A stretch of 64,000 nucleotides of DNA from Candidatus Levyibacteriota bacterium (GCA_963716145.1 OY970292.1:332951-396950); one strand, 5' to 3'; positions 1,952 through 54,894 are shown, counted from the stretch's first letter. The notes: generated from the sequence alone by a model not told the origin. A program made the numbers and translations.

Positions 1952-4900
1952 TCAAGAGGTATTAATATCTCTTCTTGCTGTTAGTTTTCTTAATCTCAAA
2001 CCCATCACCACTATCACAAGCCCCAGTACTCCAACAACCCCCAGTGTAACCGGTTCAAGCAAAGGGTTTCTCCTTTGTATCTTCACATTCAGTTCATATC
2101 TTTTAACATTGTCACTTGCTGCAAGAACCATTTTTTGTTCTCCTGTATCACCATTGTAGGCAATAATGACTGTGTGTTCGCCTTTTTCTACCTCTTTGAA
2201 TGTTGCTATACCTTTATCATTTGTCTTTGCTTGTCTTGGGGTAGAGTGGAGAGTAACCGAAGCCCCTCCAACCGGGTTATTCTCCTCATCTGTTACCTTT
2301 ACATCTACATCATAGGTCTTGTCCTGAGCGGAGTCGAAGGATTCTTTTTCCATCTGATTTTCTTTTGTTTTGCTGCTATCACACTTGATCTTTAGTTTCC
2401 AACCTACTTCCAGCAGAGAGGATGTTTTAAGCGTAGGGTAAGTGTCTTGATTAAGAGTTGCTATCTTTTTGTAGTCTTCTATTTTTCCCAGCTTTTCCTT
2501 AGCAATTGAGGAGAGGGAATCACCTTTCCTGACAGTGTAGTAGCTGCAGACTAAGCTTCCATCTCCTCCAGCTCCTGTCCCATCTCCCTCTTCATCAACA
2601 GGAGTTAAGCTTGATTGGGTTATCAGGTTACCGGTTGAATAGAATGGGAGAGTCTTGGCTGAGATCTGATTTGACCATTCTCCTGTGGCGCAGCCATTAC
2701 CTGCTCTTACTCTAAAGTAGTAGGTGGTTGAGGGGTCAAGGTTTTGGACTAGATAGGTTCTTGTTCCTTTCCCACCTATGTTGGAAGCAGCAAAGCTGTA
2801 TACTCCTGATTTGGTTCCGTATTCAAGTGTGTAGTGATCATATGGATCAGATGCATCGGTGAAGGTAAGAAGAATAGAACTCCCTCCTTTGGGAAGAGCT
2901 GAGTAGAGGTTAATAGGTATAGCTCCAACAGTGGTAGCTGTACAGACAGGTGAGTCTGTGGTTGATCGGGCAGGCTGAGTTTGGATATTGCATGAGGAGG
3001 GGTTAAAGCTCCAGTTGGTATTATTACCAGAGTCTATGCTATCACAAGTAGCTAGGATAACACTGTTGATATTGTGTGAATCCTGGACATCAAGGTATTG
3101 CATGTTACGTGGACCTTGAGGATCAATATTCCAGGCAGTACCAGGGGTTGAGGAACGCAGAGAGAGCTTGTTGCCCGAGTCTGTACCTCTGAGGGTGAGG
3201 GTGCCGAGGATTGTTTGGGTGGTACCTGAGGAGAAGGTGAGGGTTACCGGGGGTAGTTCTTGTCAGATTGTAGAAGGTGGTTGTATCATTGATGTGCTGA
3301 CCTATACCATCAAAAACAATTGTTCCATTATTGTGATTGAAAGTACCTCCGGTGTGATTAAAGTTTCCGCCCCCCCCTACAGTCATCGTGCCTGAAGGTG
3401 CGGTGAAACTACCTGCGGTAATATTAAAATTGTCAGTGAAATCCACCACTGTATAGTTTCCTAAATTTAATGTGGCTCCATCTACATTAAAACCACTTGT
3501 GGATACCAATCCAGTAAAACCAGATATAACTGCAGTAGTATTGAAATTGGATCCTCCCGCTGTGCTTCCAAGCGTCAGAGTACCGGTACCGGTTAATGTT
3601 CCGTTGAGTGTAATTCGGCCTGTTTGTGGATTATTTCCCAAAGGGAGCGTGCAATCTGCATTGACGGTTGAAAATCCATTATGAAGGTTTACTAAATTAA
3701 AAGTTGCATTATTACAACTCAAAGTTTGAACAGTTGTTCCATCAAACGTCACCGTCCCACCATTGGCATTGAAGGTACTACCTGAATCAGATATAAAGTT
3801 GGATGCGAAGGTTGCAGTGCCCTCTGGAGCCGTAAAGATAGCGCCTGAATTAAGGTTAAAGCCAGCATTTACATCAAATATAGTGTAGCTACCGAAATTG
3901 TAAGCACCATTAACAGTAAGAGCGTTCGAAACGAGGCCATTGAAACCCGAGAGAGCTCCTCCTGAATTTAGGGTAAGCGTAGTGATATTAGCCGTAAGTG
4001 TGCCACTTCCCGATAAAGTACCATTGAGCACCACATTCCCACCTGCTCCCACAGTAGGATTATTTCCCACAGGCAAATTACAATCACTGCTTATAGTTTT
4101 TGTCCCGGCAGGATTTGCAATAATGACAAAGTTGAAGACCGTATTATTACAGCTTGTAACACCGCCAGAGGTATCCAAAACAACTGTGCCGCCATTGGCA
4201 TTGAACGTAGTTCCGGAATTTATAGTGAATGTGCTCCCAAAGGTTGCAGTGCCCGACAGCGCCGTAAATACAGCCCCCGAACTAAGCGTAAATATGCCGT
4301 TCACATCAAACGTTGTATAACTGCCAAAATTATAATTGGCACCAGATAAGGTAAGTGCACCCGTTACCAAACCACTAAACCCTGATAAAGTTGAACCACT
4401 ATTAAGAGTTAATGCGTTTCCAGTTCCGGCTGTTCCCATAGTCAGTGTTCCAGAACCAGATAATGTGCCATTAAGCGTAAGATCTGCGTTGCTATCACTC
4501 CCTACTGTTGGATTATTGCCCAGAGGCAAGTTACAGGTGCTTCCAACTGTTTTAATAGTCCCTCCAGTATGCGCAAATGTAACTAAATTAAATGTAGTAT
4601 TATTGCAGCTCAGGGTAGCCGTTACTGCTCCATCAAATGTGATGGTCCCGCCATTGGCATTGAAGGTGGTGCCGGAATTGAGTGTAAAAGAACTGGCAAA
4701 GGTTGCAGTGCCCGACAGCGCCGTAAATACAGCTCCAGAGTTGAGTGTGAATGTTCCATTAATATCAAAAGTAGTGTAAGTGCCAAAATTATATGTAACG
4801 CTGCTAATCGTTACCTGTCCAGCAACCAGTCCACTAAATCCTGACAAGCTTGAACCACTGTTGAGCGTTAACAAGTTGGTTGTGGCTGTAGTCCCTATTG

Positions 4901-5591
4901 TTAGGGTACCAGTGCCCGACAAAGTACCACTTAGGGTAAGATCAGCATTTGCATCTGCACCAACAGTTGGATTATTTCCCAGAGGAAGGGAGCAGTTGCT
5001 ACTGACTGTTTTTGTGACATTCGTGGTATGCACAAAAGTTACAAGGTTAAATGTAACATTGTTACAACTTAGGGTAGCGCTTGCAGTCCCATCAAAAGTG
5101 AATGTCCCACTATTATGATTGAAAGTTGGTGACCCGGAGATAGTCATAGTATTTGATATTGTCGTTGAGACGCTAGATGCTGTAAATGTGCCTCCAGACA
5201 AAATAAAAATATTCAAATCCAGTGTTTGCCCCGCGGCTGTAAATGTGCCTCCCGCTTGTTGAAAAGTGGAAGTTGGAGTTAAAGATCTGGCCAATGTAAT
5301 AGTGCCAGAGTAAGTTGAGGCTATATCTATTGTGACTATTGTCCCACCAAAACCTGCATCAACAGTGCTATTCTTAGTTGAAGTAGAATTAAAAATCGCC
5401 GTGTCCGCTGAGGCAGGACAGACATCAGTAGTCCAGTTGGTACAATCTGACCAGTTATTGGTTGATCCTCCTCCATCCCATGTGAGAGAAGCAGCATAAG
5501 ATTTATTAAGGGGAGCGGAAAACAAAAAGAGAGCCAGAAGAATACAAACGGAAAAAAGAGAAATGATAAAGGAACTCAAACGGCGGTGCAT
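1952..5591 (-). CDS. Giant secreted cell-surface adhesin, ~1210 aa. N-terminal signal peptide; at least four ~148-aa Pmp-like beta-helical repeats (FxxN...GGT[IV]); FN3 domain; LysM domain; CarbopepD_reg/Ig-like domain; C-terminal TM anchor. The reading frame is interrupted by a 1-nt indel in a G5 run at 3249-3253. ORF-track pieces 3123..5591 and 1952..3103 are one gene.
   Basis: The 822-aa ORF ends in nonsense sequence (PHLLLRYHPNNPRHPHPQRY...). The alternate frame reads ...TLTFSSGTTQTILGTLTLRGTDSGNKLSLRSSTPGTAWNIDPQGPRNMQYLDVQDS..., continuing in frame into the 383-aa ORF. Repeats TFNANGGTITFDG / TFNHNSGTFTFDG recur every ~148 aa. TTYYFRVRAGNGCATGEWS marks the FN3 domain and YTVRKGDSLSSIAKEKLG the LysM domain. 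VKVTDEENNPVGGASVTLHSTPRQAKTNDKGIATF is a CarbopepD_reg-like domain. The C-terminus is LLEPVTLGVVGVLGLVIVVMGLRLRKLTARR. Confidence 0.7.
3280..5100. repeat. About four tandem ~445-bp repeats inside the adhesin gene, encoding the Pmp-like repeat units. They also explain the spurious + strand ORFs here.
   Basis: The protein repeats are near-identical 145-150-aa blocks: ...LSCNN.TFNLV....LPLGNNPTVG...LTLNSG..LSGF.GLV....NFG.YT.FD.N..F.L.SGA.FTA..GTATF...F...SGTTFNANGGT. Confidence 0.6.
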
Positions 5592-5668: not shown

Positions 5669-6259
5669 TTATTTACTGGAGTTTCTCAAAGTAACCGAGG
5701 TTTGGAATGGAATTGAACCGGTAGCCTCAACTAAATTACCAGCGTTTTTAGAATCCAACGTGAAGCTAAAATTAATAGTTGGCGGATCGTCAGGACTAGC
5801 CTGAGAACATGTAAAAGAACACTGAGTTACAGTCACAGCATTTGTATCAACGAGTGAGGCCCCGTTTGAAGCGATAGTACCCGTTGAACCTGTAGAACAT
5901 ACAAAAGTAGTCTTACTGTTGTCCGAGAGAGACCTGATGGCAATAGGACCATCTACTGCAGAACAAGCAGAATCCAGACTCTTAGCGTACCTTACTTGTT
6001 TTACTATTTGAGATAGTGCGTTGTTGCCATTTTGCTTCAGACTCACCAATCTATCTGACTTACTGCTTGCACGAAGAGTCGCAAAAATAATCGATACAAT
6101 AACTGTTCCTGTTGCTGCGAACAATGCTACAATTACCACCAATTCTACCAGGGTAAAGCCCCGCGGGGAATTTCCAATTTGCAATCTCCAATTTCCAATC
6201 CGCTCTTTATTGGTTGATATTTGATATTTGAAATTTGATATTTGAAATTTGATATTCAT
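5669..6259 (-). CDS. Prepilin-type (class III signal) pseudopilin / minor pilin
   Basis: RGFTLVELVVIVALFAATG follows the G/FTLVE prepilin peptidase motif with Glu at +5. The true start is uncertain. The in-track ATG at 6259 puts a 14-bp tandem DNA repeat in the leader. An in-frame TTG at 6184 would give a short leader MQIGNSPRG|FTLVE. Confidence 0.7.
   Translation of the reverse strand: MNIKFQISNFKYQISTNKERIGNWRLQIGNSPRGFTLVELVVIVALFAATGTVIVSIIFATLRASSKSDRLVSLKQNGNNALSQIVKQVRYAKSLDSACSAVDGPIAIRSLSDNSKTTFVCSTGSTGTIASNGASLVDTNAVTVTQCSFTCSQASPDDPPTINFSFTLDSKNAGNLVEATGSIPFQTSVTLRNSSK
6216..6256. repeat. 14-bp tandem repeat (gatatttgaaattt x2, plus partial copies) at the 5' end or upstream of the pseudopilin gene
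   Basis: Read directly: ttgatatttgatatttgaaatttgatatttgaaatttgatattcat. Confidence 0.5.
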
Positions 6260-6708
6260 GGTCCTTGTACCGGATTAGCAGTGGATAGACAAGAGGTAAT
6301 TTGACTTTTATGACAAAAACTACCGCCAGAACATTTTCCATCACTCCAAGAAACTGTTGCTGTCGCTTTTGCTACGCTTGAAGCACAGCCGGGAGTTTGT
6401 TCAATTGAAACCGACCGGATAAAATTATCCACATTTTTAATTGTGCATGAGGGAGAAGAAGTAGGCAAAGTTGAGGCCCCTTTGCTCAAACAGAAATTTC
6501 CGCTATAGCCTGTAAAGGCTGCATAGTTATTATTTCTAGTATTGCGAGTAATCTCAATTCCCTCCTGGGCATACTGGGTAGCAAGGCTTTGATCCCTACC
6601 ATATCCGGCGTTACTCAAAGACGATGCAACAATTACAGCAATACCTGATAAGATAATACCAACTACGCTTAGTGCTAATAGTGATTCAATTAGTGTTTGA
6701 CCCTTCAT
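6256..6708 (-). CDS. Prepilin-type pseudopilin. Start re-set to MKGQTLIESLL. The ORF-track start at 6822 lies inside the upstream gene.
   Basis: MKGQTLIESLLALSVVGIILSGIAVI has the class III signal (G|QTLIE). An ATG at 6708 lies 5 nt downstream of the stop of the preceding pseudopilin gene. The C-terminal region is Cys-rich (disulfide D-region-like). Confidence 0.7.
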   Translation of the reverse strand: MKGQTLIESLLALSVVGIILSGIAVIVASSLSNAGYGRDQSLATQYAQEGIEITRNTRNNNYAAFTGYSGNFCLSKGASTLPTSSPSCTIKNVDNFIRSVSIEQTPGCASSVAKATATVSWSDGKCSGGSFCHKSQITSCLSTANPVQGP

Positions 6709-6712
6709 GCTT

Positions 6713-7165
6713 TTATGGTAAGGAAATGTTTCCAGTATTGTTAATAATAATTGACTTGGTTTTTCCATAACCGCTAATAGTGATTGTACCAGGAGCTGAA
6801 ACCGTACCTGTGGATACATCAAAAAGAACGCTTGTCAGACCGCTTCCAAAACTTACTTGCCCGGGTAGTTTTTTTTGAGTAATCAGATGATCACCTGCGC
6901 ATACTACATCAAGATGATAATCCTGACCCGAAGGGGTTATAACCACTTTATATCCATCGAGAGGATTGGTTCCGCAGACAGAAGGCTTAACCTGGGAAAT
7001 AGCTCTTGACCGGGCAATATTCAAAAGACTCGAAAACCCGGACATACCGGATCCAAACACCTGAGAACTATTGTATGAACTGAAAACCACAACACTCATC
7101 ATGGAAATTATGCCGATGAATGCAAAAACAATTAGAAGCTCCATAAGAGTAAACCCTTTTTTCAT
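6713..7165 (-). CDS. Prepilin-type pseudopilin / minor pilin
   Basis: MKKGFTLMELLIVFAFIGIISMMSVVVF has the canonical KGFTLxE leader-plus-helix. It overlaps its neighbours by 4 nt, suggesting translational coupling. Confidence 0.75.
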   Translation of the reverse strand: MKKGFTLMELLIVFAFIGIISMMSVVVFSSYNSSQVFGSGMSGFSSLLNIARSRAISQVKPSVCGTNPLDGYKVVITPSGQDYHLDVVCAGDHLITQKKLPGQVSFGSGLTSVLFDVSTGTVSAPGTITISGYGKTKSIIINNTGNISLP

Positions 7166-7581
7166 GGATTAGTAACAGTATAAGAAACCCCTGCTCCGCC
7201 GCAAACATCTACAGCGTCTTTTTGTAAATCAGCGGTATTTTCCAGACATGCAATAAGATTATAACCCGATGCGATGATCGTGTATGTATACGCAGCAGAT
7301 GTGGTGGGATCGCAGGGAATTGCTTTAATGTAGGTTGTTCCGGAGACAGTCAAGGCGCTACCACAGCTTGGAAGAGGAGATGCTGGATATGAACCCTGAT
7401 CTGACCGATGTAGCTCCAAAACAGCCTGTAACTTGGCAAGGTCTGTTTTTCTTTGAGTATCCCGGGCTTTTTTAATTTGAAATAAAGGATTTAAAGCAGT
7501 CATAGCAGCAATTGCTAACGCACCTATCAGTGCAATAACAACTAACATTTCAACCAATGTAAAGCCTTTTTTCATGATCAT
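7162..7581 (-). CDS. GspG/PulG-like major pseudopilin (type II secretion / T4P pseudopilin G family)
   Basis: MIMKKGFTLVEMLVVIALIGALAIAAMTALNP...KARDTQRKTDLAKLQAVLELHRSDQGSYP follows the T2SS-G family consensus, including the ARDT.R..DL..L..AL motif. Confidence 0.8.
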   Translation of the reverse strand: MIMKKGFTLVEMLVVIALIGALAIAAMTALNPLFQIKKARDTQRKTDLAKLQAVLELHRSDQGSYPASPLPSCGSALTVSGTTYIKAIPCDPTTSAAYTYTIIASGYNLIACLENTADLQKDAVDVCGGAGVSYTVTNP

Positions 7582-7603
7582 AATATATTATGATACATGT
7601 TTA

Positions 7604-8452
7604 TCACATATGTAAATAGACGAGGGCTTTTCCAACCAATAAATCTCCCCAAAACAAGCTAATTAAGGTTCCTGCAACCAGGAACGGGCCAAACGGTATA
7701 GTCGCACCTCTAATTTTTTTATGCTTTATTCCGAGTATTACCAAAGGAATTACCGCACCGCTTATTACTGCAATATAAAATCCGAGTACAACTTTTGGAT
7801 ATCCCAGAATGAATCCCATTAAAAATGCATATACCACATCCCCAAAGCCCATGCCTTTTCCGCGGGTTACTAGAAAAATAAACAAAAAAAACAGAAATAG
7901 GCCGACAGCGCTCAAAATATAATTGAAAAACATTATACCGGGAGTTGGCAATAATACTTGCCGTAAAACCACGGCCGACAATCCCAACGCAACAGCATTA
8001 AAGGGGATAATTCCAAATTTCAGATCCGTAAAGAAAATAATAATTAGAGTTGAGATTAAAAAAAGATAGTACAGCAGGAAAAAACTCAAAATATGCAATG
8101 AATTTACCGGAGCACCTGTTGATCCGCCCAAAACAAAATATGCAGAAAAAGCAAACAATAGACCGGTAATTAATTCAACTAGGGGATAATACAGGCCCAT
8201 TGCATGCCCGCAATACCTGCATTTCCCTTGGAGCATTACAAAAGAAATAATAGGGATAAGATCAATCAAAGATAAAACATGCTTACAACTGTCGCAATGC
8301 GACCTTCCTTTAAGAGAGCTTTCTTCGCTAGGCATCCTATCCACCAAAACATTTAAAAAACTGCCTATAAATAATCCTAATAAAAAAAATGAGATAATTA
8401 ATAAAGCAAGCATGTACTGAGCGTATCTAAAATAGGGGGAAAAAGCAATCAA
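7604..8452 (-). CDS. pilD: Prepilin peptidase PilD (A24 aspartic peptidase)
   Basis: N-terminal zinc-binding Cys tetrad CDSCKHVLSLIDLIPIISFVMLQGKCRYCGH. Polytopic membrane body with GMGFGDV (catalytic Asp region). Confidence 0.85.
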   Translation of the reverse strand: MIAFSPYFRYAQYMLALLIISFFLLGLFIGSFLNVLVDRMPSEESSLKGRSHCDSCKHVLSLIDLIPIISFVMLQGKCRYCGHAMGLYYPLVELITGLLFAFSAYFVLGGSTGAPVNSLHILSFFLLYYLFLISTLIIIFFTDLKFGIIPFNAVALGLSAVVLRQVLLPTPGIMFFNYILSAVGLFLFFLFIFLVTRGKGMGFGDVVYAFLMGFILGYPKVVLGFYIAVISGAVIPLVILGIKHKKIRGATIPFGPFLVAGTLISLFWGDLLVGKALVYLHM

Positions 8453-8468
8453 AAGTTATCAAATGTAC

Positions 8469-8924
8469 TTACGGGCAAACTGTTGTTGCTGTTGCAGCGG
8501 CGCATAATTTTCCGTTTGATGAATTATATAATGCTTTTACAAATGATGCTGAAGTGTATTTCTTGGATTTTAAAGTTCCGGTCATTGTAAAAGCTGTTGC
8601 TGTATAGGTTGGGGTATATGTATATCCGCTTGGGGCAGTTGGTATAGCTCTCAATTCACCTGAACTTACAATTGTCGCGGCAGTAGGATATGTTCCATTA
8701 TTTGAGGCTGCATATGCTTCTGCTGCCTTTGACATAAGAGTAAGGTCACTAAAAACCTTGGCATCATTTCCTGCGTTGATTTTATCAATCGGATCAATAG
8801 TTGCAATAAGACCAACAGCCAAAACTCCAAGAACTGCTATAACAACCAAAAGCTCAACAAGAGTAAAGCCCTTCGACTTGCTCAGGGCAAGTCCTTTTTG
8901 AAGTTTTTTAAATTGCTTTTGCAT
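8469..8924 (-). CDS. Major type IV pilin, copy 1 (PilA/PilE-like)
   Basis: Long basic leader MQKQFKKLQKGLALSKSKG|FTLVELLVVIAVLGVLAVGLIA. C-terminal Cys pair KLCAAATATTVCP (D-region disulfide). Near-identical to copy 2. Confidence 0.8.
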   Translation of the reverse strand: MQKQFKKLQKGLALSKSKGFTLVELLVVIAVLGVLAVGLIATIDPIDKINAGNDAKVFSDLTLMSKAAEAYAASNNGTYPTAATIVSSGELRAIPTAPSGYTYTPTYTATAFTMTGTLKSKKYTSASFVKALYNSSNGKLCAAATATTVCP

Positions 8925-8970
8925 ATCTATATTCAGTAGAACACATATAATAAATGCTTGTCAATGAGTA

Positions 8971-8998
8971 AAATAAAAAAACCTCCGGAGAGGTTTTA
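8971..8998 (-). terminator. Rho-independent terminator between the two pilin gene copies
   Basis: aaataaaaaa ACCTC cgga GAGGT tttattt. A perfect 5-bp stem with a tetraloop is flanked by an A-run and a T-run, so it can act on either strand. On the minus strand it directly follows the stop of pilin copy 2. Confidence 0.6.
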
Positions 8999-9023
8999 TT
9001 TATACATTTTTAACATTTTATGC

Positions 9024-9488
9024 TTACGGGCAAACTGTTGTTGCTGTTGCAGCGGCGCATAATTTTCCGTTTGATGAATTATATAATGCTTTTACAAATG
9101 ATGCTGAAGTGTATTTCTTGGATTTTAAAGTTCCGGTCATTGTAAAAGCTGTTGCTGTATAGGTTGGGGTATATGTATATCCGCTTGGGGCAGTTGGTAT
9201 AGCTCTCAATTCACCTGAAGATATTATAGTTGCAGCATCAGGGTAGGTTCCGTTGTTTGAGGCTGCATATGCTTCTGCTGCCTTTGACATAAGAGTAAGG
9301 TCACTAAAAACCTTGGCATCATTTCCTGCGTTGATTTTATCAATCGGATCAATAGTTGCAATAAGACCAACAGCCAAAACTCCAAGAACTGCTATAACAA
9401 CCAAAAGCTCAACAAGAGTAAAGCCCTTCGACTTGCTCAGGGCAAGTCCTTTTTGAAGTTTTTTGAATTGTGATTTTTTGAAAGTCAT
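9024..9488 (-). CDS. Major type IV pilin, copy 2
   Basis: MTFKKSQFKKLQKGLALSKSKG|FTLVELLVVIAVLGVLAVGL. The mature region differs from copy 1 at only two positions (TAATIVSS vs DAATIISS) plus the leader. Confidence 0.8.
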   Translation of the reverse strand: MTFKKSQFKKLQKGLALSKSKGFTLVELLVVIAVLGVLAVGLIATIDPIDKINAGNDAKVFSDLTLMSKAAEAYAASNNGTYPDAATIISSGELRAIPTAPSGYTYTPTYTATAFTMTGTLKSKKYTSASFVKALYNSSNGKLCAAATATTVCP

Positions 9489-9580
9489 ATTTTTATTATT
9501 TTATTATTTAATCTGTATCCATTATTGTCAGATCGTAAAGACCTTGTCAATAGAGTAAAAATAGAAAAAGATACGAATAA

Positions 9581-11056
9581 TTAAAGCTGAGTATGCACTA
9601 TTCCAAGGTTATCTTTTGTATCAGCTTTTTGTGTGGAATTAAACTTTTTCAATTCCTCTTCATTAAAAATTTTAAGCGAGAAAGTAAATTGCGATCCTTT
9701 TCCCGCCCCTTCGGATGATGCCCATATTTTACCTTTATGAAGGTCTATTATTGAACGACAGATATATAGACCAAGTCCTGTGCCGGATGCTGTTTGATTA
9801 ACTACATATGATTCAGGAAGCATCCCAAACTTCTGAAATAACTTTGCAATATTTTCTGAAGAAATTCCGGCACCGGTATCGCTAACTTTTATTTCTATAA
9901 AATCATCTTTTTGCGTGAAGGAGACTGTGATTGTACCGCCCGCAGGCGTAAATTTTAAAGAATTTCCGATAAGATTAAATAATACTTCTTTTATTTTGTC
10001 ACTGTCTGCAATAACCGGAGAAAGGAAATTAGCAGGCTGAATTATCACATTTACCCCAAGTTCAACCGCGCGGGGATGAACTTCATCAATCACTTCCAGG
10101 ACAATTTTATTTATATCAACTTTATGCATCTCGATAGTTAATCTGCCTGACTCAATACGTGAAATGTTCAGCATATCATTAACCAGTTTTATTAGACGGT
10201 CAACTGAACTATATGCTCTCTCAATATAAAGCTTCTGCTTATCATTCAAGATTCCTCCATCTCCTTGAAGAGTCATCCATAAATAGGATTTTATCGCAGT
10301 CATGGGAGTCCTCAGCTCATGCGAGGCCAAGGAAACGAACTCGTCTTTCAGCTTATCGAGCGCTTTTAATTTTTCGTTTGCCTCCTGTAGTTGATCATAT
10401 AAAAGAGCATTATCTATGGCTATTCCAATAACCTGCACCAACCTCTCTAAAAGATCTCGGATGTATTGTGATAAATCCTGCTCTTCCTCTCGAGCGCACA
10501 CAACCATCGCTCCGAGTAACTGACCTCGTACAATAAGAGGGTAAATAAATACGGATTTTATACCAGTGGCTTCCTGAATATTCATGGCATTATCTTCTGC
10601 TGTCTTGGAAAGAATAGAGTTTATTAACATATTGGATGACTTAATTTTTACTTCATTCACGGCCTGAGCAATAAGATTATCCGTTTCTTTTAATAAAATT
10701 TCAGTAACATAAGAATCCTGCGGAATATTAGTCACCTTATCCTCTTTTTTACTTGACTGAGAAATCCCAAGCCTTTTCAGTGCCCCTTTCTCCTGATCGT
10801 ACACGAAGATCGTTGTTATCGGAAAATCAACTTCATTGACCAGAAGCGAGGTGACTTGTTGGGCAATCTCATTTTGATTTGTAACTGAACTAAGAATAAT
10901 TTCATCAATTTTTCTAAGGAGCATAAGAGTCTTATTCCTTTCTGAAAGCTCGACGCTTTTCTTGTACATTTCCTGATTGATATGCACAAGCTCCTGAGGA
11001 AGATCGGCTTTATTGGTTGTCTCAAGACCCAGAATTTTTTTGAAAAGTGGCAGCAT
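9581..11056 (-). CDS. Cytoplasmic GAF-domain sensor histidine kinase
   Basis: HisKA H-box SHELRTPMTAIKSY. HATPase_c N/G boxes LIGNSLKFTPAGG and DTGAGI...GTGLGLYICRSII. No TM segments. A GAF-like region lies upstream. Confidence 0.8.
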   Translation of the reverse strand: MLPLFKKILGLETTNKADLPQELVHINQEMYKKSVELSERNKTLMLLRKIDEIILSSVTNQNEIAQQVTSLLVNEVDFPITTIFVYDQEKGALKRLGISQSSKKEDKVTNIPQDSYVTEILLKETDNLIAQAVNEVKIKSSNMLINSILSKTAEDNAMNIQEATGIKSVFIYPLIVRGQLLGAMVVCAREEEQDLSQYIRDLLERLVQVIGIAIDNALLYDQLQEANEKLKALDKLKDEFVSLASHELRTPMTAIKSYLWMTLQGDGGILNDKQKLYIERAYSSVDRLIKLVNDMLNISRIESGRLTIEMHKVDINKIVLEVIDEVHPRAVELGVNVIIQPANFLSPVIADSDKIKEVLFNLIGNSLKFTPAGGTITVSFTQKDDFIEIKVSDTGAGISSENIAKLFQKFGMLPESYVVNQTASGTGLGLYICRSIIDLHKGKIWASSEGAGKGSQFTFSLKIFNEEELKKFNSTQKADTKDNLGIVHTQL

Positions 11057-11110
11057 AAAATTTTATTCCATATTTACTTTATCAGATTTGGGGACAAAAT
11101 TACAAAAGCC

Positions 11111-11386
11111 TTATCTTAATATCTCCGGGAGTTGATCTTGAGAGAATTGAAGTTTGGTTTCCCGGACAGCTTCTCTACATACTTCAATTGACGCCTTGCC
11201 AAAAAGTTTGGCGTATTGTTCAACCAAATCTGTAAGCACGTTTTTGGCATCCCCTTTAATCTTCACGTCATTTAGATTCTCTATTTCAAGTCCGGAAACT
11301 TTTCTGGCTTGCTCCAAAGCAATAGGGCCTATTATTACTTCCTGATCCTTTATTATTTGACTTACTATTTGAGAATAGGGTTCCAT
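11111..11386 (-). CDS. Hypothetical small protein, 91 aa
   Basis: Compact ORF sitting between the kinase and the membrane protein. No recognisable motif. Confidence 0.4.
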   Translation of the reverse strand: MEPYSQIVSQIIKDQEVIIGPIALEQARKVSGLEIENLNDVKIKGDAKNVLTDLVEQYAKLFGKASIEVCREAVRETKLQFSQDQLPEILR

Positions 11387-11391
11387 ATTTG

Positions 11392-12219
11392 TTATCTGCT
11401 CACTCTTTTTTGCTCTTTTGTATCAAAATTGTTAACTCCAAATGCTATAAGCATCATTGCTGTTGGCAACAAAATGTCAACCCAGTGACCATTGTAATAA
11501 GTTCCAACAGTTGTTGTATAGGAAAACGAAAAGTCCGCCAAATAGAGGACAACAAATCCAAGAAGTGTACTTTTAATCGGAAGCTTGTAACGCCCGCCTA
11601 AATAGTCAAATGATAAACCATAGATGAGCAGAGCAAGCGTTAAGATCATCAAATCTCCGAGAGGATATGCAAGGTCAAAAAAGAGTTTTAAGCTTTCTTC
11701 ACCGAAGGGAATAGCTCCTCCCCTGGCTACAACAATAAGCATATAGTAAGAAGCGATAATAGCTAAAACCGGAATAACAAATAAAAGAATTTTTCCCCGG
11801 AAATGATTTAATGAAAAACGTGCACCGGTCGCTTTTGATAAACTAACAATACCAATTATCAAAAAGGGGAAAGACAGGCTATAACCTACATCTGCAAAAG
11901 ACGGGTAGGGAACTTCTACCTTACTTATTATATTATAATATATGGACCAAAACATTTGACCCACTCCCCATGAAGTGATACCAAGCGAAATAAAAAATAC
12001 CGCCTGCCCGACCTTACTCTTAAGTCCCCCCCATTGCCGGGACTTAATTATTCCTGAGACACCGCCGATAAGGGGAATTAAACCAAATGCAAACTGGTAC
12101 CAATAATTTGCTGGAGTTTCTTTAATGCCGCGGAAGTAAAAAGCCGAACCCCATATAAGAATCAGGCAATAGTAAAAGAAGATAATTTTTGACTCTTTAC
12201 TTATATTTGTTAAAGGCAT
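11392..12219 (-). CDS. Polytopic integral membrane protein, unknown function
   Basis: About 8 hydrophobic helices, Trp/Tyr-rich. No recognised catalytic motif. Confidence 0.5.
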   Translation of the reverse strand: MPLTNISKESKIIFFYYCLILIWGSAFYFRGIKETPANYWYQFAFGLIPLIGGVSGIIKSRQWGGLKSKVGQAVFFISLGITSWGVGQMFWSIYYNIISKVEVPYPSFADVGYSLSFPFLIIGIVSLSKATGARFSLNHFRGKILLFVIPVLAIIASYYMLIVVARGGAIPFGEESLKLFFDLAYPLGDLMILTLALLIYGLSFDYLGGRYKLPIKSTLLGFVVLYLADFSFSYTTTVGTYYNGHWVDILLPTAMMLIAFGVNNFDTKEQKRVSR

Positions 12220-12284
12220 AGATTGTGTCTAGCTATTATTAGTATGCGCCTCGCAAATTAAATGTCAAGTGCATATTTCACATA

Positions 12285-13793
12285 TTATCTAACTACCCAT
12301 ACAGTCTCCATTGAATTATCTCTTGCAGAAATATGTACGTTAGGATAGCTTTTTAGTTTTATGTAATACTCAACGATCTCTTTGGTAAATTCTTCACCTT
12401 TTATTGTTGTAGGTATTCCCGGAGGAAATGGCGTTATATACTCAGCAGCTATTCTCCCTACGGCTTTGCTCAATGGGACTCTCTCAATCTGATACATCAA
12501 TAATTTTGTGACATCACTTAACTCTAAAATTCTGGGAATATCGGTTGGAATTTTGAGATTAAATTTTGCTGCTATTTTTCCCCTCTTTGGAATTTGCACT
12601 ATTTGCTCAAAAGCATTTACTGTAACTTGAACGTCATTCAATGTCGCGCTGAATGGGACCAAAAGCAAAACTGTTCCTATATTGTATTCCTCTACGATGA
12701 TTTTATATTTTCTCTCAAGAAGTTTTGCTACTTCATACCCATTAAAGCCTGCTTTAGCAACATCCACAATAACCTTTGTTTCATCTCGTTCATAAACCGG
12801 AGGGTGCTCTCTCTTCAACTGAGCGGTACCAACAACCTCAAGTCCGTCTATGCGGCTTATTTCCTCGGCTAGGCGCTTGGCAACCATAAGCATGTGATCC
12901 AATTTCTTTTTACCTTTTTTCTCCATCATTTCTCGTGCGGCGTCCAGAGAAGCAAGAAGTATATATGATGGACTACTTGTTCCCAAACTTCGGAAAGAGT
13001 CCATCAGCAAGTCCGCGTTTATTTTGCCATCTTTCCAATGAATCATTCCCGATTGCTGAAGAGAACCTCCTTGTTTGTGAGTGCTTTGTACGCATATATC
13101 TGCTCCTGCGTTCATGGCTGATGTAGGCAATTTGTCTGAGAAATGCAAGTGAGAACCCCACGCCTCATCTACAAATACTATTAATTCCGGATATTTTTTC
13201 CGTATGGTGGAAATGATTTTTTTTAAGTTTACAGACATTCCCTCGTATGTGGGATTTATAAGAAGTAGGACTTGAGGTTTTGTTTTGGCAATTGCCTCAT
13301 ATATTTCCTTTTCCGCATTTGGAAGGAACAATTGACGCTTTTGATCAATATGAGGTTTAAGAAAAATGAGATTTATACCATAGTCTTCACAAGCTGCCAC
13401 TATAGATCTATGTACGTTTCTCCCCGCTAACACTCTAAGGTTGGGAATTTGCTTGCTTAATGCCCGTAAAACCATAAAATTACTGCCTGTTGTACCGTTT
13501 ACAGAAAAAAGAGTATGATCAGCTCCATAAGCTTTTGCCGCATGATCATAGATCCTTTTAAATATACCGGACGGTTCAGATGGATATCCCAATGATTCAT
13601 AAGAAATAGAAATATCACTTGCGTACGGATTTTTTACTCGCGAGGACAGCGAATCAATTGAAGGAGTGCACCAGCGGATTGCTTTGTGCGTTTTATGATT
13701 GAGGGCATGTGTTAGGTGAGATCTCGCAGGTCTTATTTTTGCTTTACCTATATTTAGTGAAACTGCGGATAATAAATTTTTTTTAATTATCAT
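12285..13793 (-). CDS. PLP-dependent Orn/Lys/Arg decarboxylase, fold I (SpeA-like, Bacillus type)
   Basis: STHKQGGSLQQSGM carries the PLP-lysine motif SxHK of the OKR_DC_1 family. About 500 aa. Confidence 0.7.
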   Translation of the reverse strand: MIIKKNLLSAVSLNIGKAKIRPARSHLTHALNHKTHKAIRWCTPSIDSLSSRVKNPYASDISISYESLGYPSEPSGIFKRIYDHAAKAYGADHTLFSVNGTTGSNFMVLRALSKQIPNLRVLAGRNVHRSIVAACEDYGINLIFLKPHIDQKRQLFLPNAEKEIYEAIAKTKPQVLLLINPTYEGMSVNLKKIISTIRKKYPELIVFVDEAWGSHLHFSDKLPTSAMNAGADICVQSTHKQGGSLQQSGMIHWKDGKINADLLMDSFRSLGTSSPSYILLASLDAAREMMEKKGKKKLDHMLMVAKRLAEEISRIDGLEVVGTAQLKREHPPVYERDETKVIVDVAKAGFNGYEVAKLLERKYKIIVEEYNIGTVLLLVPFSATLNDVQVTVNAFEQIVQIPKRGKIAAKFNLKIPTDIPRILELSDVTKLLMYQIERVPLSKAVGRIAAEYITPFPPGIPTTIKGEEFTKEIVEYYIKLKSYPNVHISARDNSMETVWVVR

Positions 13794-13874
13794 TTGCTTT
13801 TAATAGTTACTTCATAATTAACATACCGGGATTGTGTTAACTTAGTGATAAAAATATAATACCAAAGATAATAA

Positions 13875-14765
13875 TTAGGCCCCAATAGTCTGAATAATAG
13901 CTAATTTTTCTTTCAGAAAAATACGCGCAAGTATTATTGTAGGTAAAGAAGACGCTCCGCTAAGAATGGCAACAACGCTTGTAAACGATGTGCTTGCATA
14001 TCCCAAGCTTATAGCTAAATAGGCAACGGCTTCACCTAACCCAATAAGCCATAAAAATTTCCACGCCCCCGGTTTAATATCTGTTAGATCTACTTTATGG
14101 AATCTTGAGATTATATAAGCAGCAATTGTCATAAATATAAACATCAAAAGCGAGTATATGGTCCAGTCTTTTCCTCCAGAAAAATTGTCCCAACCTAATG
14201 TCCATACTGTAGCAAGTGCTGTAGCTATTGCGATCTCCTTGACTCCTGGTGTGCCAACGATACGAATGCGTTTGGAACGCCACGCTGTGAGATCAAGATT
14301 AAGAAGTAGTACACCGCTAAAAATTAAGATCAATGCCGGCACTAAATTGGCTTTCAGCGTTTCTCCAAATACTAAAACCGATAATAATGCTACCCAACCG
14401 GTAAAAGAAGCAAAGATTGGGCTTAAAATCGCAACTTTTCCCTTTTCAAAGCCTTCGTAGCCAAAAAAATAAACAACTGCTTGGAGGCTTCCAAAAAAAA
14501 TAAGCCCTAGCCATTCCTGCAGGCTGGTGGGTAATGTAATAGAATTTTTAAATATGTATATATTGCCTAAAACTATAAAAAAAAGAATTATCGAACCAAG
14601 TACATGAGCCCATACCAAGCTAGAAATGGTTCCAATTTTATCAACTGCTTTTTTTGTTGCAAATTCCGAAAAACCCCAACCAAACATTCCTCCAACCCCG
14701 GCCGTAATTGCAATCAGTAATTCGTTCTGCATATTAATATTATGGGTACTTAAATACTCTGACAA
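13875..14765 (-). CDS. EamA/DMT-family transporter (10 TM)
   Basis: Two EamA-like halves with hydrophobic helices throughout. Confidence 0.65.
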   Translation of the reverse strand: MSEYLSTHNINMQNELLIAITAGVGGMFGWGFSEFATKKAVDKIGTISSLVWAHVLGSIILFFIVLGNIYIFKNSITLPTSLQEWLGLIFFGSLQAVVYFFGYEGFEKGKVAILSPIFASFTGWVALLSVLVFGETLKANLVPALILIFSGVLLLNLDLTAWRSKRIRIVGTPGVKEIAIATALATVWTLGWDNFSGGKDWTIYSLLMFIFMTIAAYIISRFHKVDLTDIKPGAWKFLWLIGLGEAVAYLAISLGYASTSFTSVVAILSGASSLPTIILARIFLKEKLAIIQTIGA

Positions 14766-14847
14766 TTTTCCTGAATAAATGCAAGAGGCATTTGTACTGA
14801 AATCTTAAGTTGACTTAAACCATCTTTTTGCCATACTATGGTAGTAT

Positions 14848-15231
14848 ATGGTTCAAAAAATTCTTGTGGTTGATGACGATCTGTTTATTAGGGAAATTTA
14901 CATTGAGGTTCTTAAAAACGAAGGGTACGAAGTTGATTGGGCTATAAATGGGGAAGAAGGATTTGAGAAATTGCAAAAGGGAGGATATTCGTTAACGCTG
15001 CTTGATTTAATGATGCCCAAATTGGACGGATTGGGAGTATTGAGCGCTCTTTTAACAAATCCGCCCAAAGCAAAAAACGGCCCAATTATTATGCTTACAA
15101 ATAGTGGCCCGGACTATCTTGTGGAGGAGGGTCTTAAAAAAGGCGCAGCTTCATTTCTCGTCAAAGCAGATCTTAATCCTGACCAATTGCTGGAAAAGGT
15201 TAAAAACTTTTTAGAGACTGCAAGACAATAA
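14848..15231 (+). CDS. Single-domain response regulator, receiver only (CheY/PilH-like)
   Basis: ILVVDDD...LLDLMMPKLDG: acidic pocket, phospho-acceptor Asp and a downstream K. No output domain. Confidence 0.8.
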   Translation: MVQKILVVDDDLFIREIYIEVLKNEGYEVDWAINGEEGFEKLQKGGYSLTLLDLMMPKLDGLGVLSALLTNPPKAKNGPIIMLTNSGPDYLVEEGLKKGAASFLVKADLNPDQLLEKVKNFLETARQ

Positions 15232-15233
15232 GA

Positions 15234-16436
15234 CTACTTGATAGAAGAAATCAGGCCATAAATCGGAGTAATTATTGAGAAGATCAAGAACCCCACCCCA
15301 ACTGCCAAGAGAACTATGATAGCAGGCTCAAGAAGTGTAGTAAGATTTTTAACTGTCTGGTCTACTTCACGCTCAAAATATTCTGAAGAGTGAATTAAAG
15401 ACTCATCAAGCTTTCCTGTCTGCTCACCAATTTTTACCATTTCAACAACCATGGGAGGGAATAGGGGAGATGCAGCCATTGCGTTACCCATAGTTATTCC
15501 TTTTTCCACTCTTTCTGAAATCAACACTATCGCATCTTTATAAAGAACATTCCCAACCACATCAGAACTCTTTATTAATGAATCCACAACCAAAGAACCG
15601 GCACCTATTAAAAGCCCAAGGGTCCTAGTAAATTCTGCCATCATTGTATACATTATTAATCTCCCAAAAAGGGGAATTTTTAAAATAAGTCCATCTACAA
15701 TAAACCGACCGGACTTTGTTTTATACCATTTTCTGAAATAGTAAACACCGCCAATTATACCAATAATTATTATATACCAACTATTAACCATAAATGTAGA
15801 AATAGCCAATACTATTTTTGTGGATAAAGGCAAAGGCAAATTAATACTAGTATAAAGAGAAGTAAGCTGGGGCATAACAAAAATCATCATAATTATGATA
15901 ACTAGAATCATTATTGTGACCACAATTAGCGGATACATTAATGCTCCTTTTATTGTTCTTTGAAGCTTGTCTTGTTTTTCCAAATTATCAGAAAGCCTAA
16001 GAAGCACCTTGTCCAAAAGTCCTGAAGATTCTGAGGTCCGGATAAGTGATACATAAATTGGCGGGAACAAATCCGGATATTTTTGCAGCGTTTCGGAAAA
16101 TACTTTACCGCTCTCAACTCCGGTAATAATATTCTGCACCACTTCTGCCATAGTAGAATTTTGGATTTGATTCCTAACAATCTCCAAAGCCTGCATAAGC
16201 GTCAAGCCTGATGAAAGCATGCTTGCAACTTGCCTGGTAAAAAAAATGCGGTCTTGAAGCTTGGGCTTATTTAAGAAATTAAATCTTGCAAAACCTCTTT
16301 TAGCGGCAGGAATAATTTTGATGGGAACCAGACTGTGGCCTCTTAAATATTTGGCTACTTCTCGGGCATCTTTAGCATCAATTAGACCCCGGACAACATT
16401 GCCATCCGGAGAAATAGCATGGTAGTATAATTTCAT
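15234..16436 (-). CDS. pilC: Type IV pilus inner-membrane platform protein PilC (GspF family)
   Basis: Two T2SSF repeats (…LSSGLTLMQALEIV… / …RTLGLLIGAGSLVVDSL…). 400 aa, 3 TM. Confidence 0.85.
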   Translation of the reverse strand: MKLYYHAISPDGNVVRGLIDAKDAREVAKYLRGHSLVPIKIIPAAKRGFARFNFLNKPKLQDRIFFTRQVASMLSSGLTLMQALEIVRNQIQNSTMAEVVQNIITGVESGKVFSETLQKYPDLFPPIYVSLIRTSESSGLLDKVLLRLSDNLEKQDKLQRTIKGALMYPLIVVTIMILVIIIMMIFVMPQLTSLYTSINLPLPLSTKIVLAISTFMVNSWYIIIIGIIGGVYYFRKWYKTKSGRFIVDGLILKIPLFGRLIMYTMMAEFTRTLGLLIGAGSLVVDSLIKSSDVVGNVLYKDAIVLISERVEKGITMGNAMAASPLFPPMVVEMVKIGEQTGKLDESLIHSSEYFEREVDQTVKNLTTLLEPAIIVLLAVGVGFLIFSIITPIYGLISSIK

Positions 16437-16439
16437 ATC

Positions 16440-17506
16440 TTACCCTATTAACCTCAACAACTCTCCCTCCCGTAAGGTGTAAGATTTGGCATTTTCAAGG
16501 GAAATTGTGCCGGTTCGCACAAGAGCCGCAAGAGATTCATCAAGAGTCGCCATACCCATATCTTTGGAGGTTTGGATAACAGAATCAATAAGGTGTGATT
16601 TTCCATCTCTTATATTGCTGGCAACTGCGGAGGTTCCCAGCATTATTTCAACAGCTGGAATTCTTCCTCCTCCAATCTTTGGCAAAAGTCTCTGGGAAAT
16701 AATTCCTTTAAGCGTTGCCGCAAGCTGAATCCTGACTTGAGACCTCTGATCCGAAGGAAATGAATCAACTATACGGTCTATGCTTTGAGCTGCGGAATTT
16801 GTGTGAAGGGTTGAGAAAACCAAGTGACCGGTTTCGGCAAGTGTAATAGCAGCCTGCATTGTCTCAGGATCCCGCATTTCTCCAACCAAAACAACATCAG
16901 GATCTTCCCGAAGAGATGATCTCAAGGCCAAACTCCAAGAGTGCGTATCTGTTCCCATTTCCCTTTGCGAGATAATACTACTGCCTTTTGGATAAACGAA
17001 CTCAATCGGGTCTTCAATCGTCAGAATATGTTCAGATCTGGTCATATTTATTTCATTTAAAATTGCTGCGAGCGTAGTTGATTTTCCATGCCCGGTGGGC
17101 CTGCGACAATAACAAAACCTTGTCTTAATCCCGAAAAAGTGTGGCAAATTTTAGGAAGACCCAGTTGCTCAATTGAACGGACACTAGGAGTTAAAAAACG
17201 CATTACCGCTGACACGGTTCCCCGCTGAAAATAAGCGTTCACCCTAAATCTTCCCAACTCCTCATCAGGAATTTCTGAAAAGCTAAATGAAAAATCCAGC
17301 TCTTTATTTGTCAGAAAAAGTTCTTTTTGTTCAGGGGTCAAAAGCGAAAAAACCATTGTCTCGATCTCAGCCGCTTTTAGCAAGGAGCTCGTTGTGAGAG
17401 TACGAAGCACTCCGTCAATACGGAAAGTCGGCGCAATACCAACCATCAAATGAAGATCCGATGCTTTATTTTTAACTGTAAGCGATAGCAATTCTTTAAT
17501 ATCCAT
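16440..17506 (-). CDS. pilT: Twitching-motility retraction ATPase PilT. The reading frame is interrupted by a 1-nt deletion at the Walker A box near 17090-17100. The ORF-track pieces 17057..17506 and 16440..17147 are one gene.
   Basis: N-terminus MDIKELLSLTVKNKASDLHLMVGIAPTFRIDGVLR. The expected VIVAGPTGHGKSTT reads as VIVAGPPGMENQ in frame 1 and PTGHGKSTTLAAILNEIN in frame 3. The rest is the canonical PilT C-terminus (…GHLVFSTLHTNSAAQSIDRIVD…). Confidence 0.8.
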
Positions 17507-17576: not shown

Positions 17577-19322
17577 TTATTCCTGCGCAACGCGCAGCAC
17601 TTCTTCAATCGTAGTTTCTCCATGGACAACTTTCAAGTATCCATCTTGTTTTAAAGTAATCATACCTTCAGCAATTGCCTGTTTTTCAATACTTAGATTA
17701 TCCGCTTGGGTAATAATTAAATGCGATATTTTTTCACTTGCGGGCATCACTTCATATATTCCAATCCTCCCAATATATCCCAAATTTGAGCATCGATCGC
17801 ATCCTTTACCTCGATACAATTTTATTTCATCTTTTTCGCTTAATAGATTTCCCAAAACGCCTTTTATTTCAGCGATTAGAGCACTCGGCGGGGAAAACTC
17901 CACTTTGCATTCATTACATATCTTGCGCACTATCCTTTGGGCCGCAATTGCGTTTACGGTTGAGGCAAGCAAAAATGACTCAGCTCCTAAATCCATGAGT
18001 CGGGGAAGCGCACCTGCAGCATTTGAGGTGTGAAGAGTTGAGAAAACCAAATGGCCCGTGAGAGCGGCTTGAATTGCCAAATCAGTTGTCTCTTTATCTC
18101 TAATTTCCCCGACCAAAATAATATTGGGGTCTTGTCTCAAGAAAGCGCGAAGCCCTGATGCGAAAGTCAATCCAACTGCTGGATTTATTTGTACTTGATT
18201 AACTCCCGCAATCTCATATTCAACCGGGTCTTCAAGTGAGGCGATATTAACCTTTGTGCTATTGAGGCGGGACAAAATAGAGTAAAGTGTCGTTGTTTTA
18301 CCGCTTCCTGTCGGTCCGCAGACCAAAATAATGCCATGCGCTCGTAGAGTTGCTGTCTCCAAGTTCTTCAAAGAATTTCCGATCAAACCAAGCTCTTGAA
18401 GAGTTGGTACTCCTCCTGATTTTCTAAGAAGCCTCATTACAATCTTTTCTCCCCTTACTGTTGGTATGGTCGAGACACGTAGGTCCACCTCATCTGATCC
18501 AACTTTAAAATTCAATCTGCCGTCTTGCGGAATTCTCCTCTCATCTATCTTAAGTTCTGCTAAGATCTTTATTCTTGAGATAAGCTGCTCTTCAACATTT
18601 CTTGGAAGACTCAATTTATCATACAAAATGCCGTCAATTCTATAACGCACACGAACCCGGTCTTCCTGAGGTTCAATGTGTACATCCGATGCTCTTGATG
18701 TAACCGCGAATTCAAGAATTGTTGACACTATCTTGGCAATCGGTGCATCATTTATAATTTGCGCAATTTGCTTGCTGTCAACTGTGTGTTTTGTAGTAAA
18801 TTCCTCAGTCTCTTTAATAGCTTCATTTACTTCTCCGACAAGACCTTGTTTATATTGCAGATCAATAGCTTTTTTTACTTCTTCTGGATCGGCAGCGAAT
18901 GCTTTAATATCGTATCCTGTTTTTTGTCTTACAAAAGCAACTGAGTCCAAATCCAAGGGATTTCCCATCGCAATTGATAGCACTTTGTTTTTGTCATCAT
19001 ATAAAAAGGGGATCAAGGAGAGCCTCTCTACAACTCCCTGAGGAAGAAGCCCTAAAGCCTGAGGAGAAAAGGAAACTGTTGTAAGATCTACATAATCAAT
19101 TCCCACCAATCTTGCAACAGCCCGAGCAATTTTATCATTGGAAACTATTTTCAAATCTTTTATGATTTCAGTTGGAGATTTACCCGTGGATGCGCTTTTT
19201 ACCTGAATATCATCATATTGCTCTTTACTAAGTTGTCCATCAGCATATAAGATGTCTACTGCGGATTTTGCGTCATCCAGTTGAGACTGGTTTGATTGCG
19301 GTATTTGGATCGTATCGGGCAT
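17577..19322 (-). CDS. pilB: Type IV pilus assembly (extension) ATPase PilB (GspE family)
   Basis: T2SSE_N domain. Walker A GPTGSGKTTTLYS. Asp/His boxes. Tetracysteine CNECKVEF...CDRCSNLGYIGRIGIYE. Confidence 0.85.
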   Translation of the reverse strand: MPDTIQIPQSNQSQLDDAKSAVDILYADGQLSKEQYDDIQVKSASTGKSPTEIIKDLKIVSNDKIARAVARLVGIDYVDLTTVSFSPQALGLLPQGVVERLSLIPFLYDDKNKVLSIAMGNPLDLDSVAFVRQKTGYDIKAFAADPEEVKKAIDLQYKQGLVGEVNEAIKETEEFTTKHTVDSKQIAQIINDAPIAKIVSTILEFAVTSRASDVHIEPQEDRVRVRYRIDGILYDKLSLPRNVEEQLISRIKILAELKIDERRIPQDGRLNFKVGSDEVDLRVSTIPTVRGEKIVMRLLRKSGGVPTLQELGLIGNSLKNLETATLRAHGIILVCGPTGSGKTTTLYSILSRLNSTKVNIASLEDPVEYEIAGVNQVQINPAVGLTFASGLRAFLRQDPNIILVGEIRDKETTDLAIQAALTGHLVFSTLHTSNAAGALPRLMDLGAESFLLASTVNAIAAQRIVRKICNECKVEFSPPSALIAEIKGVLGNLLSEKDEIKLYRGKGCDRCSNLGYIGRIGIYEVMPASEKISHLIITQADNLSIEKQAIAEGMITLKQDGYLKVVHGETTIEEVLRVAQE

Positions 19323-54808: not shown

Positions 54809-54894
54809 GCCGAGATGGCGGAATGGTATACGCGGTAGTCTCAAAAACTACTAGTTGCAAGGCTATGGGGGTTCGACTCCCCCTCTCGGCACCA
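54809..54894 (+). tRNA. tRNA-Leu (anticodon CAA), class II with long variable arm. CCA encoded.
   Basis: Acceptor GCCGAGA/UCUCGGC. Anticodon stem GUAGU/ACUAC with loop CUCAAAA. Long variable arm. T-arm GGGGG-UUCGACU-CCCCC. Discriminator A followed by CCA. Confidence 0.85.

Follow-up and report, generated by a model that had tools for sequence, protein, structure and literature searches.

Two adjacent, complete genes in this Candidatus Levyibacteriota genome code for essentially one type IVa-like pilin. Judged from the nucleotide pattern, the two copies form a gene-conversion mosaic, and to go by the signals around them they are probably expressed at different levels. We think it likely that an account combining duplication, conversion, two expression regimes and co-assembly of the two products is correct as a whole. 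Throughout, the window is the 64,000-nucleotide stretch that was analyzed (GC 38.5%, from a genome of 1.14 Mb), and positions are counted from its first letter.

Two adjacent genes for one pilin

The pilin pair lies within a type IV pilus locus whose main features are the following.

9024-9488, minus strand: upstream prepilin gene, translated as 154 aa, mature part 132 aa; leader of 22 aa, MTFKKSQFKKLQKGLALSKSKG, then FTLVE
8469-8924, minus strand: downstream prepilin gene, translated as 151 aa, mature part 132 aa; leader of 19 aa, MQKQFKKLQKGLALSKSKG
7604-8452, minus strand: prepilin peptidase gene pilD, open reading frame from TTG at 8452, likely start ATG at 8413 (269 aa)
7162-7581, 6713-7165, 6256-6822 and 5669-6259, minus strand: four minor-pilin-like genes, with N_methyl, GspH and G↓FTL(V/M)E motifs
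9581-11056, minus strand: GAF-HisKA-HATPase sensor kinase gene (Pfam), directly upstream of the pilins
15234-16436, minus strand: pilC (T2SSF)
16440-17506, minus strand: pilT, in two overlapping open reading frames (Pfam)
17577-19322, minus strand: pilB (T2SSE, MshEN)

Both pilin products match the N_methyl family PF07963 (E-values of 8.6e-9 for the upstream and 8.3e-9 for the downstream copy; 35.1 bits against a cut-off of 21.2). Each carries a class III signal peptide, in which a hydrophilic, Lys-rich leader is followed by a hydrophobic alpha1N segment, for which about 21 residues is the criterion. The cleavage-site context ...SKSKG↓FTLVELLVVIAVLGVLAVGLIA, with G-1, F+1 and E+5, is common to both copies. 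The leaders begin differently, with MTFKKSQ... upstream and MQKQ... downstream, and hold seven and six Lys residues, respectively. A Lys-rich leader ahead of G↓FTLVE had been reported in the preliminary description and is present in both genes, but its length, given there as 20-23 residues, is 19 and 22 in the translations. Neither gene has an alternative in-frame start codon nearer the cleavage site, which rules out misannotation as the source of the long leader.

The upstream pilin has 301 homologs, mostly in Microgenomates-type MAGs, and the named ones come from Levybacteria, Gottesmanbacteria and Saccharimonadales MAGs; taken with the genome size, these names make a Patescibacteria genome of the Microgenomates type probable. 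Annotated leaders across this Patescibacteria pilin family run from 4 to 31 aa, with a mode of 14, and by this comparison a long leader is a trait of the whole family and not peculiar to these two genes. An eight-residue leader insert, LALSKSKG (8875-8893 and 9430-9448), is missing from relatives with 14-aa leaders, for example MTFKNSQFKKLQKG↓F; it was found in one Levybacteria pilin, and a similar form in two others. The insert is coded by a perfect inverted repeat, GACTTGC-CCTGA-GCAAGTC, which is only partially conserved in another Levybacteria locus (L087) and might fold into a hairpin in the mRNA directly downstream of the start codon.

The mature pilins are 98.5% identical. Their two differences, D62T and I67V (mature numbering, upstream to downstream), both fall in the variable peptide AAEAYAASNNGTYP[D/T]AATI[I/V]SSGELR, and the translations agree with the earlier statement that the proteins differ by DAATIISS versus TAATIVSS and by the first leader residues. 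The predicted tryptic peptides AAEAYAASNNGTYPDAATIISSGELR and AAEAYAASNNGTYPTAATIVSSGELR would distinguish the copies. Gly, Ala, Ser and Thr make up 45% of the mature sequences, and the C-terminus holds two Cys residues in a C-x10-C-P loop, of which C153 is invariant across the pilin family. From position, family and Gly+Ala+Ser+Thr content, this is probably the major pilin.

Cognate machinery is close by, with pilD directly downstream of the pair and pilC, pilT and pilB 6-10 kb upstream. The peptidase has clear Pfam matches (A24_N_bact, 1.9e-30; Peptidase_A24, 5e-9) and is called as 269 aa on an independent Logan contig (L003). The minor-pilin-like genes include a ComP_DUS match below the cut-off, and a PilX_N protein gene also lies in the downstream cluster. 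In the minor-pilin-like frame at 5669-6259, the N-terminus (6227-6259) is made from a short tandem repeat, TTTGAAATTTGATA..., giving NIKFQISNFKYQIS, and the Logan contig breaks there. Farther downstream, on the minus strand, 3123-5591 codes for an 822-aa Thr/Ser/Asn/Gly-rich protein, which has no Pfam match, internal repeats of ~130-140 residues and a C-terminal tail that is apparently out of frame. Next, at 1952-3103, comes an FN3/LysM/Ig-like protein that has a membrane anchor at its C-terminus; the two may form a pair of adhesins associated with the pilus, or a frameshift may have split a single gene. The pilT frames, of 149 and 235 aa, overlap at ~17057-17147, with a frameshift in the Walker A region, and restoring one base in a GGCCC run yields the Walker A motif GPTGHGKSTT. 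The split either is a homopolymer error left in a long-read assembly or is genuine, in which case the retraction ATPase gene is a pseudogene or phase-variable.

Fold and subclass of the pilin

An AlphaFold (AF2) model of the upstream pilin, built with 34 family members, reached a pLDDT of 86.4. It predicts a pilin fold, with a long N-terminal helix (helices 25-45 and 48-77) followed by an antiparallel beta-sheet of four strands. Its best PDB matches are the T4a-type pilins 4noa, 4bhr and 4d40, with probabilities of 0.96-0.98 and weak E-values of 0.04-0.06. In the model, a short alpha-beta-loop helix (85-91) has the D/T difference (mature position 62) at its N-cap and the I/V difference (67) in its interior; as modeled, both substitutions are conservative.

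Type IVa pilins have short leaders, usually below 10 aa, and on this point the two copies depart from the class. Their other features are those of type IVa: Phe+1, a mature length of 132 aa (class 130-160), a C-terminal Cys loop and a conserved alpha1N. The gene for the PilT retraction ATPase that is expected with this class is there but frameshifted. Type IVb pilins are marked by a long leader, Met, Leu or Val at +1, a size of ~190 aa or an Flp-type pilin, and Tad/Bfp/Tcp-type machinery. Leader length alone fits that subclass; Phe+1, the 132-aa mature protein and the PilB/PilT/PilC machinery do not, and type IVb was rejected. The combination of an IVb-like leader length with an IVa-like Phe+1, already remarked upon in the preliminary description, is confirmed by the translations. 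The same leader-length exception occurs in PilE1/PilE2 of Streptococcus sanguinis, which are nevertheless classed as IVa (PMC4832360).

A mosaic of identity and saturation

The copies share a block of 442 nt (9023-9464 and 8468-8909, at a spacing of 555) that runs from inside the leader-coding region to one base past the stop codon. It contains 13 nucleotide differences, and all 13 lie inside a single patch of 36 nt, a clustering with a chance of ~1e-12 that was reached by none of 2,000,000 permutations.

9220-9255, minus strand: divergent patch, upstream version (codons N78-S90, with D84 and I89)
8665-8700, minus strand: divergent patch, downstream version (with T81 and V86)

Eleven patch codons differ, nine synonymously and two by replacement, giving a pS of 0.81 and a pN of 0.17, although the patch has only ~10 synonymous sites and the age that it implies is therefore imprecise. 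Across the other 133 codons pS is 0 over ~100 synonymous sites, an identity that polishing of a long-read assembly with multi-mapping reads could inflate. For reference, comparison with the nearest ortholog gives a pS of 0.64, and comparison with a dispersed paralog of the same genome gives 0.66. The earlier wording of copies that are nearly identical in DNA is true overall, but it hides how the differences are arranged, all of them in one saturated patch. Outside the coding sequence, the 34 nt from the -35 element to the ATG region are ~44% identical between the copies by hand count. Coding identity, saturated non-coding divergence and a saturated patch, taken together, appear explicable only by gene conversion or an equivalent recombinational exchange. 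Consequently, the conversion for which near-identical copies had been named as a substrate has evidently taken place.

The most serious competitor, which we regard as improbable but worth keeping in mind, is a very recent, simple duplication without conversion, in which the patch was brought in by a short foreign or divergent recombination tract, for example through DNA uptake. Such a history would suit the single-copy state of the closest relatives and a patch as divergent as a between-species comparison (pS of 0.81 versus 0.64), and the sub-cut-off ComP_DUS-like match of a minor pilin makes natural transformation conceivable. However, the spacer, promoter and 5' untranslated region are far more diverged than the coding sequence, which a recent event would leave unexplained. 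Nor was a donor found: the dispersed paralog matches neither version of the patch, and a search of metagenome contigs for a donor allele (degenerate pattern, C-terminal motif A-x-YNSSNGKLC) returned two chance matches and no pilin. A diversity-generating retroelement was also considered and rejected, as the patch differences are not limited to adenine positions.

Two copies or one

Both pilin sequences are annotated on one contig of 1,142,061 bp (NCBI, ENA). An independent check was made with the Logan contigs of run ERR11593400 (k=31, the value used in Logan assemblies). On the pilD side, a contig covers 6227-8497 and ends exactly 30 nt inside the shared block; on the kinase side, another covers 9435-15450 and starts exactly 30 nt inside it. 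The break at 9435 had been predicted from that at 8497 before the look-up, and the prediction matched. Breaks k-1 nt inside both outer boundaries are what the de Bruijn graph of a true two-copy repeat with different flanks would give, and the presence of both copies, as first described, is supported by this layout. Neither pilin copy nor the kinase had a match in exact-protein look-ups, presumably because a k=31 assembly cannot span the repeat and because its kinase gene carries indels. Within the kinase gene, at 9864-9874, the Logan contig differs by two clustered 1-nt indels and two substitutions, and the gene is split in that assembly; this suggests noisy reads or a minor variant.

We therefore give very little weight to an assembly artefact, in which strain variants of one pilin gene, or a mis-join, were laid out in tandem. 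The genome is metagenome-derived, more than 200 identical nucleotides on either side of a small variant patch could resemble a strain bubble, and there are indel-type problems nearby (the pilT frameshift and the indel cluster relative to the Logan contig). However, a strain bubble would not produce the breaks at 8497 and 9435, the copies differ in their 5' ends and start regions and are separated by a unique 99-nt spacer, and the source is a single 1.14-Mb contig.

Origin of the pair and its relatives

In the three closest syntenic loci (L002, at 75% identity, L091 and L092), one pilin gene stands ahead of pilD, and in L002 and L092 the kinase gene is likewise directly upstream of the pilin. 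These orthologs share the promoter and the MTFK... leader start found in the upstream copy, and the sequence 3' of the downstream copy is homologous to what lies between the pilin gene and pilD in L002. Single-gene relatives and ancestral outer flanks together indicate, at the level of sequence, that the duplication is specific to this lineage and took in the promoter region.

Tandem pilin paralogs ahead of pilD also occur in two more distant relatives, the Microgenomates-type MAGs L084 (two, 6497-7486) and L086 (three, 5917-7453), where they are 65-69% identical. Between neighbors in these arrays, ~45 alpha1-coding codons (16-60) are 87-100% identical in nucleotides, with a pS of 0-0.38, and the 3' halves have a pS mostly of 0.5-0.9. 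No such 5' homogenization is seen in the non-adjacent pairs, namely the two L087 genes and the window's pilins versus the dispersed paralog. Because the homogenized 5' parts are confined to adjacent paralogs, conversion between neighboring pilin genes is, on this comparison, recurrent in the group. The background for such pairs came from 93 loci, sampled haphazardly from the matches listed for GFTL[IV]ELL[VI]V and containing 68 adjacent pairs of pilin-like genes. Among the matches listed, adjacent pairs at least 90% identical occurred only in this window and in a Solirubrobacterales MAG (L074). L087 (2264-7486) has PMT_2 and YfhO-type glycosyltransferase genes between two pilin genes, an arrangement suggestive of glycosylated pilins in that lineage.

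Signals around the two copies

Three elements on the minus strand bear on expression of the pair.

9521-9550, minus strand: promoter P1 of the upstream copy, TTGACA, 18 nt, AATAAT (scan match 11/12)
8966-8997, minus strand: terminator-like hairpin with U-tract, short stem of 8 bp with three G-C pairs, loop UCCG (terminator scan)
8935-8964, minus strand: P2-like element, perfect -35 TTGACA at 8959-8964, degenerate -10 TCTACT at 8935-8940

P1 is the best promoter match in the region in a scan based on sigma-70 rules, which may not fully suit this phylum. The arrangement TTGACAAG-N16-AATAAT also precedes the single pilin gene in the orthologous loci L002, L091 and L092. On the coding strand, the hairpin reads AAAACCUC-UCCG-GAGGUUUU followed by UUUAUUUU (core ACCTC-CGGA-GAGGT at 8981-8994, stem 8997-8978), and it begins 26 nt past the stop codon of the upstream copy. 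Alone it folds at -9.5 kcal/mol, and its 71-nt context has a z of -2.1 relative to shuffles. With a G+C-containing stem-loop, an immediate U-tract and a position downstream of a stop codon, the element resembles a Rho-independent terminator, and both scan and folding are in keeping with the hairpin terminator originally described between the copies.

The P2-like element was found by manual alignment with P1 and the ortholog promoters, and the promoter scan did not report it. Here the spacer repeats the TTTTACTC-ATTGACAAG -35 region, the -10 site TCTACT is without the key A at position 2, and the downstream ATG follows 10 nt beyond it. Past the downstream copy, the 55 nt to the likely pilD ATG contain no hairpin, consistent with the earlier proposal that this copy continues into pilD. 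A good -35 element, a poor -10 element and the lack of a terminator before pilD would imply lower, pilD-coupled expression of the downstream copy. Neither pilin copy has a Shine-Dalgarno sequence. Rfam gave nothing in or near the locus; its sole match was a tRNA-Leu at 54809.

A third pilin gene of the same genome, outside the window (L001, 9077-9160), codes for 140 aa with an 8-aa leader and is 60% identical to the pair. It has a TTGACA-17-TGTAAT promoter and a canonical AAGGAG Shine-Dalgarno sequence, signals that look stronger than those of the pair, and its product could be the dominant pilin of the filament. Between its -10 element and Shine-Dalgarno sequence there is a (TA)n run of ~12 units, a candidate slipped-strand switch.

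A proposed history

The observations can be drawn together as follows. An ancestral single module, consisting of a promoter and a pilin gene upstream of pilD, would have been duplicated in this lineage, after which the non-coding parts diverged almost to saturation. Gene conversion between the copies would keep the coding parts identical, except that the 36-nt patch, which falls where the alpha-beta loop is encoded, would have either escaped conversion or been imported. The upstream copy would be read from the conserved P1, with most transcripts ending at the hairpin and U-tract, and its monocistronic pilin mRNA would be abundant. Expression of the downstream copy would be lower, by read-through or from a weak P2, together with the peptidase and the minor pilins. 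PilD would cleave both prepilins after Gly-1, and the mature pilins, since they differ only at D62T and I67V, should co-assemble in the same filament.

We offer a broader reading much more tentatively, and doubt that it will hold in full. In compact T4P loci of the monoderm type (Patescibacteria, Actinomycetota, Streptococcus), neighboring pilin genes may as a rule undergo conversion, which would keep the alpha1 assembly interface identical for co-polymerization and leave promoters and exposed parts free to evolve. On that view the window would be an extreme case, in which conversion extends over the whole gene and the unconverted patch marks the true age of the duplication.

If the proposed history is right, conversion can keep the duplicates of a pilin gene identical and the two can come under what would be different transcriptional regimes, which yields a concrete hypothesis, that of balancing pilin supply against the supply of peptidase and minor pilins. 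The locus also offers a clean natural instance of a reduced genome in which gene copies evolve in concert. In ultrasmall, host-dependent Patescibacteria, the organelles most likely to serve for attaching to hosts, for moving and for taking up DNA are type IV pili.

Comparison with known systems

The arrays of L084 and L086 belong to the same pilin family (~50% identity), lie directly upstream of pilD and have homogenized 5' halves that point to conversion between neighbors. However, their paralogs have diverged globular domains and mostly short spacers, whereas in the window homogenization spares only 36 nt of the gene and the copies have a terminator-like hairpin between them. The Solirubrobacterales locus (L074, 3699-6450) resembles the window in that a monoderm lineage carries copies 99-100% identical ahead of pilD; their leader is basic and 14 aa long, with G↓FTLIE, and the spacers are only partly shared. 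It differs in phylum, in its high GC and in having three copies plus a fourth at 68%.

As in the pilE/pilS system of Neisseria, the window holds a mosaic from non-reciprocal exchange between pilin copies. Programmed antigenic or phase variation of that type, with the second copy as cassette donor for an exposed loop, would also accord with the clustering of the differences and with a patch in the alpha-beta loop, a part of the pilin that is exposed on the surface of T4a filaments. However, the Neisseria system depends on silent cassettes that are truncated and lack promoters, on a G4 element and on hypervariable exposed regions, and none of these was found here. Instead, there are only two copies, both full-length with starts and leaders rather than 5'-truncated, the patch is mostly synonymous with two conservative amino acid changes, and no G4-forming sequence occurs in 7000-12000. 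Both copies being complete and differing so little, membership in the pilE/pilS class was rejected, and we hold antigenic variation to be highly unlikely.

Among Patescibacteria, the pili of Saccharibacteria (TM7x) serve in host binding and twitching (PMC11623550). Their T4P-1 and T4P-2 resemble the present system in being Patescibacteria T4P with small T4a-like pilins, PilA1 and PilA2, rich in Gly, Ala, Ser and Thr; however, PilA1 and PilA2 are encoded in separate loci and form separate filaments, and a near-identical tandem pair is not described there (PMC11623550). The ability of Patescibacteria to build two distinct pili (PMC11623550) and the differing promoter contexts of our copies might point to genes that serve different filaments or conditions, but such specialization has hardly any chance of being correct, given mature proteins this similar with conservative changes, one pilB/pilT/pilC set in the window and a dispersed third paralog that is the better candidate for a distinct role.

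[quoted passage not shown] Shared with the window are two pilin genes in a compact pil cluster with pilD and minor pilin genes, the presence of pilT, a long leader with F+1 and FTLVE, and near-identical N-terminal parts; the window has two adjacent full-length genes with identical alpha1N, as expected for a pair of major pilins. The analogy first drawn to PilE1/PilE2 is fair on the counts of long leader, FTLVE and two pilin genes. However, PilE1 and PilE2 are 78% identical, compared with 98.5% here, diverge over their C-terminal 30% and are functionally non-equivalent, and there is no sequence-level orthology with the window past the pilin N-terminus. A heteropolymer has been demonstrated in S. 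sanguinis, while for the window's pilins we infer it. Differently expressed pilin copies are a known theme in pilus loci, and the pair described here is no new kind of system; what the analysis adds is the mosaic left by gene conversion, an independent line of support for two copies and the recurrence of the arrangement in other lineages.
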